64,000 bases of DNA from an uncultured delta proteobacterium (GTDB lineage: Bacteria; Myxococcota; Myxococcia; Myxococcales; Anaeromyxobacteraceae), in contig CAWHDZ010000017.1 of NCBI GenBank assembly GCA_963828255.1, forward strand, positions 1 through 64,000, given 5' to 3'. Numbering within the stretch: position 1 is the first letter of the stretch; every line of letters starts with the position of its first letter. Shown here piece by piece: positions 1,417 to 62,632 of the stretch. The notes beneath the pieces were generated by a model that was given only the letters and a program-made list of their open reading frames with translations, searched no databases and was not told the origin of the DNA. Both the position numbers and the translations under genes were made by a program.

Positions 1417-4400
1417 GTGAGCCGACACGTTCCGACACGAAGCCTGGCCGCCGTCGCCGTCGCACTGGGACTCCTGGTCATACCCGAGAGCGTGCACGCC
1501 CAGATCGCGGGCGAGAGCGTGAACATGGTCACGGGCACCGGCTGGCCCGGCGGTGACCCCTACCTCCAGCGCCAGAACGAGCCGTCGATCGCAGTGTCGT
1601 CCGCGAACCCCGAGCACCTTCTCGCCGGCGCGAACGACTACCGCACCGTGGACATCGCCAAGGCGCCTGCCGACAAGATGCCCGGCGACGCCTGGGCGGG
1701 GATCTTCAAGTCGCTCGACGGCGGCAAGACCTGGAAGAGCTACCTGATGCCGGGGTACCCGCAGGACCCGGCTCGGTACGCGAAGACCGCGCCCTTCGCT
1801 CCGCTGACCGGAGCCGCAGCGCCCCCGCTCATGTGGTGCGGCGTCCCCACGGCCGCGGTCCCCGAGGTCACGAACCCCGACGGAACGGTGACCTCCGCCG
1901 TCCCGGCCACCGACGGCACGTGCACGTCGGCCGCCGACCCGGTGGTCCGCGCCGGCGCGGACGGGATGTTCTACTACGGCGGGATCACGTTCCAGCGCTT
2001 CACCAACTACGGCAAGGTCTACCTGGCCCGCTTCATCGACCTGAACAACAAGGAGAACGGCGACGCCACGATGGGGACCGACCCCATCCGCTTCGTGGAC
2101 CAGAAGGTGGTCGCCCTCGGCAGCGCGACCGACTTCGTGGACAAGCCCTGGATCGCCGTGGACGTGCCGCGCTCCACCAACCCGTCCTGCACGGTGACGG
2201 TCGTCAACCCGGACAAGACCACCACCAAGCGGACCTTCCCCGGGCACACCATCTACGTGGCGTATCTGCGCCTCACGAACAACCAGACCCAGAGCGACGT
2301 GATGGTCCGTCACTCCGACGACTGCGGCGCCACCTGGGCCGCGCCCGTCAAGGTGAACGATGCCACCAGCCCGGCCAACGAGGGTCCGGCCCTGGCCATC
2401 GACCCGGTGAAGGGGCACGTCTACGTGACCTGGCGGCGGGTGGGCTCCCCCACCCAGCCCAACGCCATCATGATCTCCCGCTCCTTCAGCCGGGCGACCA
2501 AGTTCACCAAGCCGCGCGAGGTGGCCACCGTCTCGCCCTTCGACCAGCAGACCACCGACACCGGCTTCCGGGTCACCCTCTTCCCCAGCTCCGCCATCTC
2601 GGTGGACAAGGCCGGCGTGCGCCGCCTGCACGTGGCCTGGGCCGAGCGGGTGGACGCGACCAATTACGCACGCGTGGTGGTCGCCACCAAGCTGCTCTCC
2701 CCTCCGCCCGTCACCGAACACGAGGAGGACGAGGACGACAACACCTGCCAGAAGCTCGATCGGGCACGCGCCGTCGACGGCGCTCCCATCACGGTGGACG
2801 CCACCCCCATCCCCGGACGTGGCGTGGGGGAGTTCAGCAAGGGGCACCAGTTCATGCCCTCGATCACCTTCTCGCAGGGCAAGCTGATGCTGGTCTACTA
2901 CGACACGCGCCTCGACCACACGCGCGCCTACTTCAACCCCAACAAGCCGTTCGACGCCGATGCCCAGGGCAGCTTCTACGAGGTGATCCGCGGCCCGCTC
3001 GGCGCCCCCCCGGTGAGCAACGAGAACATCCCCGTCGGCCCGGACAACCAGCTCGACGCCGACGACGCCGTCTTCAACGCCTTCGTGGACGACGGAAACC
3101 TCACCAAGGTCCGCCACACCGTGGACGTGCGGGTGGCCTCGGCGCTCCCCTCCGACGCCCCCTCCTTCAGCGCGGCGCAGCTGTCCAAGTTCCCCTTCGG
3201 CACGCGAGGGGACGAGGCCTACCTGGCCGACGCCAGCGGCAACCTGGCCGTTCCGGGCTTCGGAGCGGATCTCCAGATCGTCGCCAACCGGGAGGTCAAG
3301 CTCCTCCAGCAGCTCAAGGTGAACCCGCCCAACCTGCCCATGTTCAAGGGCGGCACCAAGCCCTTCTTCGGTGACTACATCGACGTCCAGGGACCGGCCT
3401 TCGTGAAGAAGGCCGGGAAGTGGGTCTTCAACAACGATCTCAACCCGTCGCCGGTCTTCCACGCGGTGTGGACCAGCAACGAGGACGTGAAGGCGCCCCC
3501 CGACGGGAGGTGGGACCTCTACGCGCCCATCAACGTGCAGGGGCCGAGCCGCGTCGATCCCACCCAGCAGACCGTGGCCTGCACCCCGGCCACGGCGCTC
3601 TACGCCTCGTCCCGCAACCAGAACATCTACACCTCCCGGATCACCGAGGGGCTGCTCGTCTCCTCGCCGCAGAACACCAAGCCGCTCAGCTCCACGCAGG
3701 TCCGCTCCTTCGTGATCGCGGCGCACAACGCCACCAGCGTGAAGAAGACCGTCAAGTTCACCTACGTCATTCCCACCGGGGTGACGGCATCCTTCCGCGC
3801 GCTCTCCGGCAACCAGCTGGCCGTCCTCCCCATCGTGACGGCCGACATCCCGCCCCACTCGACCGTGTCACGTTCGCTCTTCGTGAAGTCCACCAGCGCA
3901 TCGGCCACCATCACGGCCACGGTGACCGAGCAGGGCGGCGCGTTCGCCTCCGGCTTCGTCCTCCTGAACCCGCCCGGCGCCACTCCCGGGCTCATCGCGC
4001 CCGACGGAGCGTCGGCGATCACCGGCGGCGAGACCTACACCCCCATCCAGGTGGCCGCGAACCTGTCCAACGCCAACCTGAGCAACGCGAACCTGAGCAA
4101 CGCCAACCTCTCCAACGCGAACCTGTCGAACGCGAACCTCTCGAACGCGAACCTGAGCAACGCCAACCTCTCCAACGCGAACCTGAGCAACGCCAACCTC
4201 TCCAACGCGGCGCTGGCCAACCTCTCCAACGCCAACCTGTCGAACGCGAACCTCAGCAACGCCAACCTGTCGAACGCGAACCTCAGCAACGCCAACCTGA
4301 GCAACGCGAACCTCTCCAACGCGAATCTGAGCAACGCGAACCTCAGCAACGCCAGCATCTCCGACCTCAACTACGAGTACCAGAACACCGGGAACACCAG

Positions 4401-7400
4401 CACCGCCTACTCCATCAAGATCGTGGGGACGAAGCCCAACCCCGGTGAGGTGCTCCAGCTCATCGTCGCCCGGACCTACACCACGCCCACCGCCGTCGGC
4501 TGCGAGCTCAAGGAGGAGGCGCACAACCACATCCTGGCCTCCATCGACGACGTGAGCGGCGCGGTCGTTTCCCCCACGTCAAAGGTGGATCCGGGCGTGG
4601 GAGACGCCAACGCCGCCAACGCCACCGTGGTGCTGGCCCCCGGCGAGAAGGTCCAGATCACCCTTCGCGGCAACGTGACCCTGGCGCGCATGGCCGAGAT
4701 CGGGGCCACGCTGGCGCCGCGCCCCGTCGCCCAGCGCACGCCCATCGGCGGGACGACTGGCACCACCACCTATGCCCAGTACGCGCCGCGGGGAGCGACC
4801 ACAACCGCGCTCTCGTACGACGGCTCGGCCGTCTTCACCGCCACCGTGAAGGACGCCGCCCTCGCGGCCGTGGTCTCCGGCTCGGTCAACTTCGTCGCCG
4901 CCGGCAACGTCTTCCTCGGAACCGTCCAGCTGGGCGCGGCGGGTACGGCGACGTTCACGCCAGTCGGCCTGCCGTCGGGGTCGACGGTGGCCGCGTACTA
5001 CAGCGGCTCCAACACCTTCCTGCCCAGCCAGGCGTCGCTCACGACGACGGCCTTTGGCGTGACCGTTTCTCCGGCGACCGTGACGCTGGCGCCGGGTGCC
5101 GAGCAGATCTTCGCGGCCACCGTGTCCGGCACGCCAAACCAGGACGTGGTCTGGTCGGTTGACGGAACCGGTGCCGGGACGATCAACGACGCCGGCCTCT
5201 ACATCGCCCACGCGGTGCCCGGGACCTACACCGTTCGTGCCACCTCTTCCGCCGACCCGACCAAGAGCGGAATCGCGACGGTCACCGTGTCGACGACCGC
5301 GCCTCCTCCCCCGAACGTCACCGTGACGCTGTCGCCGTCCGCGCCGGCTCTCCTGGTCGGCCAGGTGCAGACCTTCACGGCCACGGTCGCCGGCACGACC
5401 AACCTCGCGGTGAACTGGACCGTCGCTCCCTCGACGGGCGTGACCTTCACCGTGCTCTCGACCACCACCGTGAGCTTCGTGACGACGGTGCCCGGCAGTT
5501 ACACGGTCACGGCGACGTCGGTCGAGGTCCCGGCGGCATCGGCTTCCACGACCTTCACGGTCAGCGCCACCGCCCCCGGCGCACCTACCGGCCTCATGGT
5601 CACGGGCGCGCCTGGCAACGGGCAGGTGTCCCTCGCCTGGTCGCCTCCCGCCTCGGATGGCGGCTCCGCCATCGCTGGCTACATCGTCACCGCCACGTCG
5701 GTGGCTGCCAGCATCACCAGGGACGTCGGGTTGACGACGACGACGACCGTCGGGCTCCTCACGAACGGAGTCGCCTACACCTTCACCGTCGCGGCGTACA
5801 ACGGGGTCGGCGCCGGATCGGGCCCGGTGTCGAACTCCGTCACGGCCACGCCGGTGGCGCCCGTCACCGCTCCCGGCGCCCCCACCGGCCTGACGGTCAC
5901 GGCGGGCAACGGGTCCGCGACCCTCGGATGGACGGCTCCGGCCTCGGACGGCGGCAGCGCCATCACGGGCTACGACGTCACCATCTCGCCCGCCGCAGGC
6001 GCGGTCGTGGTCACCGGGACGACCGCATCGGTCACCGGGCTCGCGAACGGAACCGCGTACACGTTCACCGTCGCGGCGATCAACGTGGCCGGCACCGGAT
6101 CTCCATCGGTTGCCTCCAGCGCGTTCACGCCTGCCACTGTCCCCGGCGTTCCCACCGGTCTGACGGCCACGGCTGGCAACGGGTCGGCGACCCTTGGCTG
6201 GACGGCCCCGGCTTCGAACGGCAGCGCCATCAGCGGGTACACGGTGGCGATCTCGCCGGCCGCGGGAAGCATCGTGGTCACCGGGACGAGCGCAGCGGTC
6301 ACCGGACTCACCAACGGAACCGCTTACACGTTCACCGTCGCGGCGATCAACGGGGCCGGCACGGGCCCGGCTTCCTCGCCCTCCATCGCGTTCACCCCGG
6401 TCGCCCCGGTCCCGGTCGCCGTGACCGTCTCGCCGCTGGATCCCGGCGCCACCGTCGCCACGCCGCTGTCCTTCGCGGCGACCGTCACGGGGTCCGCCAA
6501 CACCGCCGTCAACTGGTCGGTGTCGCCGTCGACGACGGCGACCATCTCGCAGGCGGGCAGCTTCGTCGCCTCGCAGACCGGGCTCTACACCGTGACCGCG
6601 ACCTCGCAGGCCGACCCGACCAAGAGCGCCAGCACGGTAGTCACGGTGTGGGGCGCACAGTTCTCGACGTTCGCGGTCTCCGTGACGCCGAGCCCCTCGG
6701 CCTTCAGCGCCCCCGTCTCCGTCAACGTGACGTTCACGGCGCCGTTCGGTCGGCAGCCCGCTGGGACGGTGGTCATCTCCGACTTCCCCGCGACGAACTC
6801 GACCGGTGCCGTCGGTTTCGCCTCCGTCACCCGCCCCGTCGCATGTACGCGGACCTTCACCACCACCACCCCCCCCTGGGAGTGCAGCGTCAGCGTCGAG
6901 GCCGCGCCGGCCTGGGCGATCGCGGGGCTCCACTGGGTGGCCGCCGAGTACACCGGGGACTCCTACTTCGACGCCCAATTGGCCGAGATCGACACCGTCG
7001 TCGAGATCCCGGTGCCGGTGCTCGCCTACCTGGGCGCGGCCAATCGTCCCACGGGCGGCACGGACCACCATCTCCGGATCACCAACTGGGCCCAGTACCC
7101 GGTAGAGACCTTCGATCCGCAGACGCTCGTGGCGTGCGGCGCGAACCTGAGCCCGGCGCGGACCTGGGTCGACATCGTCGACGGGACGACCGGGGCCTTC
7201 ATCTACGGATACTGCGCGATGGCCTCGGAGGTCGACCTCCAGGACTTCTCCTTCTTCGTGGGGAACCTGATCGCGCCGCCCGCCAGCGTCAAGGTCCGGG
7301 TCATGGACCTCGTGCGAAGCGTCACGCTTGAATCCAACCTGGTCGCCATCCCCGCGCCCTTCGTGGTGCCCGCCCCGCAGGCCGCAAGCACCGTAGCCGG

Positions 7401-39128: not shown

Positions 39129-39419
39129 CTACTTCACGGCCTTCTTGGCGGCGTCGGCGGTGTCGTCGGCGGCCTTCTTCGACCAGTCCGACGTGTCGTC
39201 GGCCGCCTTCTTGGTTGCCTTCGACGTGTCGTCGGCGGCCTTCTTCGACCAGTCCGACGTGTCGTCGGCGGCCTTCTTCGACCAGTCCTTCGTGTCGTCG
39301 GCAGCCTTCTTCGACCAGTCCTTCGTGTCGTCGACCGCCTTCTTGACGTCGTCGGCAGAAGCGGGGCCGGCAAGGGCCAGGAAGGCAACGGCGCACAGCG
39401 CGCTCAGGATCTTCTTCAT
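39129..39419 (-). CDS. Secreted small protein with 11-aa tandem repeats (LEA-like)
   Basis: Signal peptide plus ~6x KKAADDT(K/S)DWS. Confidence 0.75.
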   Translation of the reverse strand: MKKILSALCAVAFLALAGPASADDVKKAVDDTKDWSKKAADDTKDWSKKAADDTSDWSKKAADDTSKATKKAADDTSDWSKKAADDTADAAKKAVK

Positions 39420-53926: not shown

Positions 53927-55181
<1,255 letters not shown>

Positions 55182-60659: not shown

Positions 60660-61442
60660 GTGGCCCTTCACTTCTGGAAATACCACGGCCTGGGGAACGA
60701 CTTCGTCGTGGTCGAGGGCGGCGCGCCCATGGCGCCCGGGCGAGCCGTGGCCATCTGCGACCGGCACCGCGGCATCGGCGCCGACGGCGTGCTCGGCGTC
60801 CTGCCGGCCCGTGACGGCGGCGCCGCCCGCATGCACATCTTCAACCCGGACGGCTCGGTGGCCGCCATGTGCGGCAACGGGATCCGCTGCGTCGCGCGCC
60901 ACCTGGCCGAGACCCGCGCGCTCGACGGCGAGATCGTCATCGAGACCGATTCCGGGCCGCGCACCTGCACCGTCCACCGCGGTCCGGCCGGGGTGGACTC
61001 GGTCACCGTGGAGATGGGGCGCGCCCGCATCGAGGGGACCCAGGAGTTCGTGGTCGGCGTCGAGCGGGTGCGCACGCTCCGCGTCTCCATGGGAAACCCG
61101 CACGCCGTGATCCTGGACGGACCCGACGCGGCCCGTGCCGGCGTCCTGGGTCCCGCCATCGAGGCCCTGGTGCCGGGCGGCGTGAACGTCGGGTTCGGCC
61201 AGGCCGCCGGGTCTTCCGTGGACCTCGTGGTCTGGGAGCGGGGCGCCGGTCTCACCGAGGCCTGCGGCACGGGCGCCTGCGCCGCGGCGGTGGCCGCGCT
61301 GCACGAGGGGCGCCTCGACGGATCCGGCCCGGTGACGGTGTGCCTCCCCGGGGGCGCGCTCGAGATCACGGTCGGCCCCGATCTCGCCGTGCGCATGAAG
61401 GGGCCGGCGGAGAAGGTTTTCGAGGGGGAGACGGAGTTGTAG
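60660..61442 (+). CDS. dapF: Diaminopimelate epimerase
   Basis: KYHGLGNDF, MCGNG, MGNPH and ERGAG.TEACGTG motifs. Confidence 0.95.
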   Translation: MALHFWKYHGLGNDFVVVEGGAPMAPGRAVAICDRHRGIGADGVLGVLPARDGGAARMHIFNPDGSVAAMCGNGIRCVARHLAETRALDGEIVIETDSGPRTCTVHRGPAGVDSVTVEMGRARIEGTQEFVVGVERVRTLRVSMGNPHAVILDGPDAARAGVLGPAIEALVPGGVNVGFGQAAGSSVDLVVWERGAGLTEACGTGACAAAVAALHEGRLDGSGPVTVCLPGGALEITVGPDLAVRMKGPAEKVFEGETEL

Positions 61443-61466
61443 GCAACAGCCGCGAAGGCGGCGCAG

Positions 61467-61790
61467 TCAGTGCGTCAACCTCCACAGCATGGCGAGTACG
61501 CGGTCGCAGAAACCCAGCGTCCTCGCGGTGGCGTCAGCTCCCAGGTACCCGAACGCCTCCGCCACCCGCAGGCAGGCGACCACCTCGTCCGCGCTGCCCG
61601 CGGCGACGCGAAACAGGTGGAGGCGGTCCTTCCCTTTGCGCCGGCTGCCCTCGCTCACGTTCAGCGGAACGGACGCTGCGGCGCGGCGGAGCTGTCTCGC
61701 GAGGTCCGGGTCTCGCCGGTCCAGATTCGCAAGCGGCCCCTCGAGCGACCGGGCCATCTCGAGAGCGACCTCGAACGCGTGAAATGTCAT
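61467..61790 (-). CDS. Four-helix-bundle protein (23S rRNA IVS protein/bAvd-like)
   Basis: [19 protein letters not shown]...[14 protein letters not shown] after AAGGAG. Confidence 0.9.
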
Positions 61791-61797
61791 CTGCGGC

Positions 61798-61921
61798 TCC
61801 TTTCGGGTGGGGTTTGCCCCATCCGGCGCAGGACCCGTGACAGCCCGACGCGGGATCCACCCTCGAACGACCGCGGGCTGGCGCGGGGCGTGCGCCACCG
61901 AGGCAACCCCACCCGAAAGGA
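61798..61921. repeat. 20-bp inverted repeat (one bulge) enclosing ~83 nt in the leader of the four-helix-bundle gene
   Basis: TCCTTTCGGGTGGGGTTTGCC (61798-61818) and GGCAACCCCACCCGAAAGGA (61902-61921). Confidence 0.9.
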
Positions 61922-61923
61922 CC

Positions 61924-62091
61924 GAGTCGGAGTCGGAGTCGGAGTCGGAGTCGGAGTCGGAGTCGGAGTCGGAGTCGGAGTCGGAGTCGGAGTCGGAGTC
62001 GGAGTCGGAGTCGGAGTCGGAGTCGGAGTCGGAGTCGGAGTCGGAGTCGGAGTCGGAGTCGGAGTCGGAGTCGGAGTCGGAGTCGGAGTCG
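61924..62091. repeat. Perfect microsatellite (GAGTCG)28
   Basis: Counted directly: 168 bp. Confidence 0.97.
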
Positions 62092-62140
62092 GAAAAAATC
62101 AACTAATAGTGACACGCGTTCGCTGAACGGGCATCCATCT

Positions 62141-62320
62141 CCGAACCCGAACCCGAACCCGAACCCGAACCCGAACCCGAACCCGAACCCGAACCCGAAC
62201 CCGAACCCGAACCCGAACCCGAACCCGAACCCGAACCCGAACCCGAACCCGAACCCGAACCCGAACCCGAACCCGAACCCGAACCCGAACCCGAACCCGA
62301 ACCCGAACCCGAACCCGAAC
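62141..62320. repeat. Perfect microsatellite (CCGAAC)30
   Basis: Counted directly: 180 bp. Confidence 0.97.
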
Positions 62321-62329
62321 CCGCCCCGT

Positions 62330-62632
62330 CTACTCCTCCCCCAGCGCCGCCCTCACGATCGGATTCGTGAGCAGCATCCGGTACTCCGCCGGGCTGAGCC
62401 ACGCCTCCCGGCTTCCTCCCCGGTACGCGAGCGACACCCTCACCCTCCCGTCCCTCGCCTCGACCCGCGCCGGCCAGCCCGCCTCCAGGTCCCTCTCGAT
62501 GGATCTCAGATGTCTGGCGATCCTGACCGCCCGCCTTCCCTCCGGCGACGACAGCGCGAGGAAGTGCCTGTTGCGGCTGAAGCCGCGGTCCTCGCGCATC
62601 CGGCGCACTGCGAGCTCGACGAAGCCTGCCAT
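62330..62632 (-). CDS. Hypothetical protein
   Basis: 100-aa ORF co-oriented with its neighbours; FSRNRHF motif. Confidence 0.6.

Follow-up and report, generated by a model that had tools for sequence, protein, structure and literature searches.

We favour, at a probability of roughly 0.55, the reading that the two perfect hexamer arrays in the window (the whole stretch of 64,000 nucleotides that was analysed) are the opposite-polarity arms of a six-copy cassette, likely a selfish passenger that overwrites its sister copies at old intergenic sites. The cassette is composed of hexamer arms, a hairpin leader of about 125 nt and a gene of the PF05635/TIGR02436 family, and all six copies in this genome (G000) show the order array-leader-gene and sit between protein-coding ORFs. 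The protein family, the rRNA intervening sequences (IVS) and IS1182 were already known; what is new is the cassette, no description of which was found in the literature searched (few subscription journals, main texts only).

The inner arm, (GAGTCG)28, lies at 61924..62093 (28.3 copies and 100% purity according to TRF) and reads (CCGACT)n in the sense of the cassette, and the outer arm, (CCGAAC)30, lies at 62141..62323 (30.5 copies, 100% purity) and reads (GTTCGG)n, with a polarity opposite to that of the inner arm. They are separated by an AT-rich spacer with two small palindromes (62094..62140; no strand is assigned to the spacer or to the arms), which measures 47 bp between the TRF ends and 49 bp if whole units are counted; the copy numbers are assembly figures. 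TRF therefore agrees with an earlier note on this DNA, which had described a perfect hexamer pair of similar length around an AT-rich spacer of about 49 bp, and the ORF positions bear out its remark that the minus strand is sense for both flanking genes. Perfect hexamer runs of at least four copies number nine in the 4.3-Mb genome and only five reach at least 28 copies; since every one of these five adjoins a cassette copy, the window arrays are not chance tracts, as the earlier note had maintained.

That we are dealing with chance slippage tracts or an assembly artefact is exceedingly improbable, and is refuted as far as the existence of the arrays is concerned. Perfect purity and copy numbers of 28-42 could be inflated by consensus polishing, but an independent assembly has the same layout. 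In the sister genome G010, the orthologous host gene is followed by [GGGTTC]x9, a spacer 83% identical to that of the window, and [CCGACT]x15+ running to the contig end, while a second contig begins in 20 unit copies and continues through leader and gene into dapF; we infer that the two contigs join into one window-like locus with other copy numbers. The arrays are therefore not a private assembly artefact. In addition, a 128-nt short-read contig, from a run that is possibly that of the source sample, spans the leader-GAGTCG junction with zero differences, and the enrichment of arrays beside homologues described below equally argues against an artefact.

The spacer was rejected as an essential part of the unit, its homologues being found at only two other array pairs (83% and 81% identity); elsewhere it is absent or unrelated, and another pair is separated by 9 bp. 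A scan of spacers for palindromes (5-bp arms, at least 3 A/T) gave one match among 11 loci, and neither a sigma-70 promoter nor an intrinsic terminator was found within 61400-62400, spacer included. A coding role of the arrays was also considered, as an ORF starting at 62102 reads (Ser-Asp)28 in frame with the gene. It was ruled out: counted from the ATG, the leader core falls in each of the three frames (12, 23 and 5 of 40), a stop occurs within 300 nt in 14/40, and units of 7, 12 and 13 nt exist. Coding-type tandem repeats were detected by TRF elsewhere in the window, namely a 15-bp pentapeptide-like run (4056-4352), a 267-bp domain duplication (5872-6362) and a 33-bp run (39139-39356).

Homologues of the PF05635 type are present in 18 of the 41 genomes searched (9/13 within the genus), and a pattern scan for the cassette gave 53 loci, the closest being from uncultured Anaeromyxobacter; none of 93 pattern matches in viral contigs was confirmed. 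We assembled 60 homologue loci with start codon and flanks (29 genus copies and 31 others), a set that is not independent, 14 or so coming from one genome and three being identical, and counted as arrays CCG- or CGG-core repeats of at least eight units, with 1,476 genes as background. Arrays flank 54 of the 60 loci as against 28/1,476 background genes, and both polarities occur at 30/60 as against 2/1,476, so the association of opposite-polarity pairs with homologues that the earlier note had predicted does recur. A single polarity is seen at 24/60 loci, including three of the six G000 copies, and several others of the 24 end at a contig break. Where the arms are paired, two layouts exist: the arms enclose the gene (15 loci), or both lie upstream of it, as in the window (14 loci). 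Repeat units vary widely across loci (6-, 7-, 12- and 13-mers), and the inner unit of the window also abuts the leader at three other G000 copies.

Composite arrangements were also observed. Twin cassettes lie back to back around one common array at L039 (G001 C1:36128-37188), convergent cassette pairs surround a common hairpin at six loci of other genomes (L155, L158, L159, L169, L172 and L179), and a second leader core without a gene stands inverted at the far end of the array pair at L150:316-465. The earlier suggestion of an undescribed module of repeats and a four-helix-bundle gene stands insofar as the unit recurs and acts as a mobile or recombining one, but it had missed the leader and the five other copies.

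No function has been assigned to PF05635, a widespread family of which structures have been solved; it is known from rRNA intervening sequences and related to DGR Avd. The window member (61467..61790, minus strand, 107 aa) was identified by profile and fold matches. It scores 55.2 bits against Pfam PF05635 (cut-off 33.8) and 57.8 bits against TIGR02436 (cut-off 24), which confirms that the gene next to the arrays encodes a four-helix bundle, and all six G000 copies exceed the Pfam cut-off. Its sequence matches 2GSC (E 1.4e-6), and the predicted fold (pLDDT 79, one of five models confident) matches 2GSC and 2RLD best (TM 0.76-0.85, Foldseek), the match to DGR Avd 4DWL being weaker (TM 0.73, E 0.34). 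With a median dN/dS of 0.19 over 402 gene pairs, and 0.12-0.25 among diverged G000 copies, the cassette gene is under purifying selection. In the accessible parts of the respective sources, the Xanthomonas family protein is a homopentamer (PMC4990558), the family is called uncharacterised (10.1101/2024.02.27.582315), and it is linked to Avd (PMC10053308).

The most conserved part of the cassette is the leader, which lies between the inner array and the ATG and is present at 6/6 G000 copies with 89-97% identity. In the window it occupies 61798..61921 on the minus strand and is predicted to form an outer stem hiding the Shine-Dalgarno sequence (GGAG, 61797..61800, minus strand), an inner stem with three conserved mismatches, and a variable loop. 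The 3' arm of the inner stem, CTGTCAC-N5-CTGCGCC, lies at 61825..61846 and the 5' arm at 61875..61896 (both minus strand; positions 61879-61893 of the plus strand read TGGCGCG-N4-GTGC). We aligned 35 of 57 distinct leaders, picked by position, to a structure derived from one member, leaving out 22 (two near-duplicates, four with the inner stem deleted, and 16 of other types). In this alignment 96.6% of cells are paired (at most 45% in slid controls), and nine of 27 pairs covary, changing on both sides, a value reached by 0/500 shuffles. The predicted pairing probability of the Shine-Dalgarno sequence is 0.93 at the window copy, and it exceeds 0.8 in 47/60 cassettes vs 20/111 control starts. 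No known RNA family emerged as a candidate, since Rfam gave no match at gathering level in 61300-62500 and one weak match of 17 bits where 49 are needed.

The inner-stem mismatches are nearly fixed (C.C in 34, C.A in 34 and C.U in 35 of 35 leaders); among variable departures from pairing, C.A occurs in six column types vs one for G.U. Read on the opposite strand, the mismatches become G.G, G.T and G.A, and the template strand of the leader folds better in 35/35 cases as DNA and in 26/35 as RNA, counts that are not independent as the 35 leaders are kin. Sigma-54 promoters have a consensus with GG-N10-GC spacing. The 5' arm read antisense has this spacing, with GG and TGC conserved in 35/35 aligned leaders, whereas the sense arm has GT, not GG; the genome contains rpoN. 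The inner stem may therefore be put forward, as a hypothesis, as a single-strand-dependent sigma-54-type promoter. We go no further, because genome-wide counts, made with a crude gene mask, reveal no excess of the motif in intergenic DNA and none by spacing (35 vs 26, 1, 24 and 13), and because four genus copies have lost the inner stem. These four still have an intact gene, so such a promoter step would be inessential.

An unlikely alternative is the model of the earlier note, in which the arrays are selected as a long sense-strand RNA duplex in the read-through transcript that controls the gene, whether as an RNase III substrate, an IVS-like stem or a protein-binding array. RNAfold of both strands did reproduce its periodic pairing at five of six positions on the minus strand: the arrays alone reach -228 kcal/mol on the minus strand vs -195.5 on the plus strand, and the region 61790-62340 reaches -324 vs -286 kcal/mol (z -6.3 and -8.9), the plus strand, too, folding far better than shuffles. 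The mean pairing probability of the arrays is about 0.8, yet they appear unpaired in the centroid because the register of the duplex slides. As DNA, the plus strand of the window pair is the more stable one (-103.7 vs -86.2). The layout is kept in G010 and, according to the available text of PMC4990558, IVSs with an S23p gene undergo RNase III cleavage from a terminal stem, both of which would suit a selected duplex.

A further comparison is that between native and foreign arms, scored on 48-nt pieces paired with their own partner or with same-polarity arms from other genomes (swaps). The native partner beats the swap mean at 14/15 loci where the arms enclose the gene, at 11/14 where both lie upstream, and at 5/8 genus pairs of the window type (5-7 swaps each). 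However, at the window two of five foreign arms do no worse than its own partner, and the sense strand is the more stable one at just 11/29 paired loci as RNA and 9/29 as DNA. The minus-strand G.U advantage at the window is therefore a local accident of the units, and the claim of a selected minus-strand duplex is not supported. At many loci the two arms differ in length (86 vs 180 nt, for instance). The arrays of single polarity at half of the G000 copies and the position of the window gene outside the stem speak further against the duplex model. What we do observe is a match between the arms of one cassette, clearest where they enclose the gene; inverted duplication and conversion can produce such a match with no selection acting on RNA.

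Evidence for a passenger that overwrites its sister copies comes from the sites. At the window, the cassette lies between dapF (60660..61442, plus strand, PF01678), which is convergent with it, and an upstream host gene (62330..62632, minus strand) of 100 aa that belongs to no Pfam or NCBIfam family and whose protein is conserved in 22/25 genomes searched across the order. Among 11 syntenic genomes, the window site is filled in four, empty in six and occupied by another small ORF in one; at the empty sites, dapF directly abuts the upstream host gene, the two stops lying within about 30 bp. Comparison of these loci shows the cassette as inserted relative to empty orthologous sites; no target-site duplication is visible at the window, where relatives are just 79-95% identical. 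The other five G000 sites, traced in 13 relatives, are filled, empty or scarred, the scars being a 3' gene remnant in G001, a scar of the last codons in G013 and a decayed copy in G002. The host genes at these sites, judged by translation, are presumably smc, ftsY, hemW, polA, divIVA, nadA, a speB-like gene and an S46 peptidase.

The cassette is oriented oppositely between species at three sites, and in G010 one cassette (L090, C18:37858-39333) joins the flanks of two sites that are separate in G000 and other relatives, reflecting either ectopic recombination or misassembly. In G006, the entire dapF region is found twice in identical form (C3:19805-23101 and C20:3928-7224), with a cassette that has lost its leader. 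In a tree of 30 genes, from which broken copies were left out, same-genome copies cluster across sites with support of 97-100 (97-98.5% identical in G006, 98.5% in G000 and 93-95% in G001), and G000/G010 gene pairs follow the site. Monophyly of same-site copies is rejected at 6/6 sites (p-AU 0.007 to 1e-60), so cassettes likely overwrite one another. This overwriting would be patchy, since the mean identity of same-genome pairs (78.3%) is hardly above that of same-site pairs (77.2%). No insertion at a new site was caught among close strains, most copies being at old sites common to relatives. To judge by these comparisons, the six sites are old, and the same sites are shown to carry different cassette lineages, in both orientations, in different species.

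Most cassette sites lie between convergent 3' ends, a placement that would also suit a domesticated, host-kept device in which the arms and the protein serve as terminator or roadblock where host genes converge. The codon use of neighbouring genes bears on this account. Over the last 40-45 codons of the upstream host gene, C at fourfold sites falls to 0.12 vs 0.49 ± 0.13 in the genome (3,652 crudely called gene ends), and the orthologous gene ends have 0.15-0.27 at four filled sites and 0.33-0.62 at six empty ones, the silent-site C being replaced by G. Depletion was found at 5/8 G000 flanks tested directly, the ends of dapF, nadA and divIVA being normal; further exceptions are two filled sites in G002 and G003, which are normal, and one empty site in G011, which is low. 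Cassette and a local change in the codon use of the host thus coincide, and the frequent loss of silent-site C in arm-facing host genes would fit stalled transcription or R-loops. We nevertheless consider a host device even less likely than a selected RNA duplex: most relatives do without the cassette between the same genes, losses are frequent, no intrinsic terminator was found, and C loss is also seen at an unrelated GTAG palindrome. This REP-like palindrome, GTCTAC-N4-GTAGAC, has six copies in G000 (C25:97483-97650, C40:112800-112911, C7:180131, C8:54757, C19:39077 and C26:69019), and at two sites it stands between convergent genes with silent-site C loss.

Somewhat better placed than either of these, though still doubtful, is the view of the cassette as a stranded IS1182-type passenger, delivered long ago by a transposase and left with decayed ends, the arrays being neutral slippage of IS-end hexamer runs and later similarity being ordinary gene conversion. 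Three identical IS1182 copies in G041 (L195, L196 and L197), with inverted ends, CTAG on both sides and 294 bits against a cut-off of 270, do have the leader, the gene and hexamer runs inside them; G045 has this IS lacking the cassette gene (L194), and G044 has a MITE of about 290 bp with hexamer runs (L205). The purifying selection on the gene could date from a mobile phase. On the other hand, G000 has no IS1182 transposase over the cut-off and no IS ends at its cassettes, and among 194 loci the transposase occurs in one locus group only (L142/L144/L145, one genome). The low dN/dS persists among diverged G000 copies, and arm pairs stay matched while units change, both of which speak against a stranded passenger. 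More than 20 right-end copies of the IS1182 element were seen in G042.

No mobility enzyme linked to the cassette was found in G000 in searches for reverse transcriptase and IS1182; reverse transcriptase (PF00078) had no match in this 99%-complete genome, the control being positive in 3/14. PF01797 gave one weak match, 26 kb from the nearest cassette copy. Elsewhere in the window, an ORF at 53927-55162 resembles a tyrosine integrase in its translation, and its end runs into tRNA-like sequence, which suggests an integrated element to its left.

Returning to the selfish passenger that we prefer, its first entry into a lineage would probably have been by a borrowed vehicle, for example an IS1182 element as in G041. 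The CCG/CGG arms would grow by slippage and provide homology handles usable in either orientation, and recombination between them could bring about overwriting, flipping and deletion scars. By analogy with the IS200 tnpA leader, the outer stem of the cassette leader would keep the gene silent in transcripts that read through from the host gene. The inner stem, which likely folds on the template strand, may be a single-strand-dependent promoter during copying of the cassette. The protein is likely an Avd-like ring binding to the DNA or RNA of its own cassette. A tighter version, in which a transposase-free selfish element exposes single strands at its microsatellite arms, fires a hairpin promoter solely on the exposed template strand, is steered by the ring protein in copy-and-overwrite homing among sites marked by arms, and leaves a strand-specific cytosine-loss footprint in adjacent host genes, is at present speculative and rather improbable; if true, this selfish-element reading would for the first time assign a function to PF05635 and account for one class of tandem repeats in bacteria. 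As it stands, the cassette connects an orphan family of proteins with bacterial repeats that had lacked an explanation. It accounts for each of the five long perfect microsatellites in the genome and, in relatives, for inversions and at least one apparent rearrangement. Being compact and multi-copy, it also offers concrete candidate ligands for PF05635, namely the leader hairpin and the arm duplex, and a way of spreading that can be tested.

Several known systems resemble the cassette in part. REP/BIME and cyanobacterial STRR repeats lie in intergenic DNA close to gene ends, frequently as inverted pairs, and are prone to homogenisation. Placement and pairing are similar in the cassette, but its arms, which are perfect or degenerate hexamers with a CCG core, go with one gene family, no RAYT lies beside the cassettes, and the genome has its GTAG palindromes at other places. 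IS1182 elements that have passenger genes, and their MITEs, provide the case of G041, where the cassette is inside one, while the window copy has no transposase, terminal inverted repeats or CTAG duplication. In IS200, as far as the accessible part of PMC4513863 goes, a long 5' stem-loop hides the Shine-Dalgarno sequence of the mobile-element gene tnpA, as predicted for the cassette leader, and guards it against impinging transcription; unlike IS200, the cassette has no transposase, and a second conserved stem, in which mismatches are fixed, is part of its leader.

Frpo / ssi promoters are likewise large imperfect hairpins directly upstream of a gene, with the more stable DNA template strand also seen in the leader; those known from the text available of PMC12672017 rebuild sigma-70 -35/-10 boxes in plasmid leading regions, whereas the cassette is chromosomal and resembles putative sigma-54 boxes. 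Folding of the template strand would place the GG arm opposite the gene template, in line with the single-strand promoter logic set out in that text. DGR Avd, described in the part of 10.1101/2023.10.23.563531 at hand as a barrel with RNA lying over it, has the same fold as the modelled cassette protein (TM 0.73-0.78, 8-9% identity; 4DWL, 8UB7-8UBE), but the cassette genome has no reverse transcriptase, and no template/variable repeat pair was seen.

A further parallel is with IVSs (S23p/PF05635), which, in the portions of PMC4990558 and 10.1101/2024.02.27.582315 available, resemble the cassette in protein family and patchy insertion, in having complementary arms and, before the start, short tandem repeats, and in a poorly accessible ribosome-binding site; the Coxiella IVS, in the former source, has heptamer tandem repeats upstream of the start. 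Unlike IVSs, the cassette is found between protein genes, none of its six copies per genome lying inside an rRNA gene, and its gene is under purifying selection. Its arms are long microsatellites; both are upstream of the gene at the window, whereas at 15/29 paired loci the ORF is enclosed by complementary arms, as in an IVS. The window unit thus belongs to none of IVS, DGR, IS1182 or REP/RAYT; its protein is a member of the PF05635 family, and the unit works like an IVS or an IS passenger.
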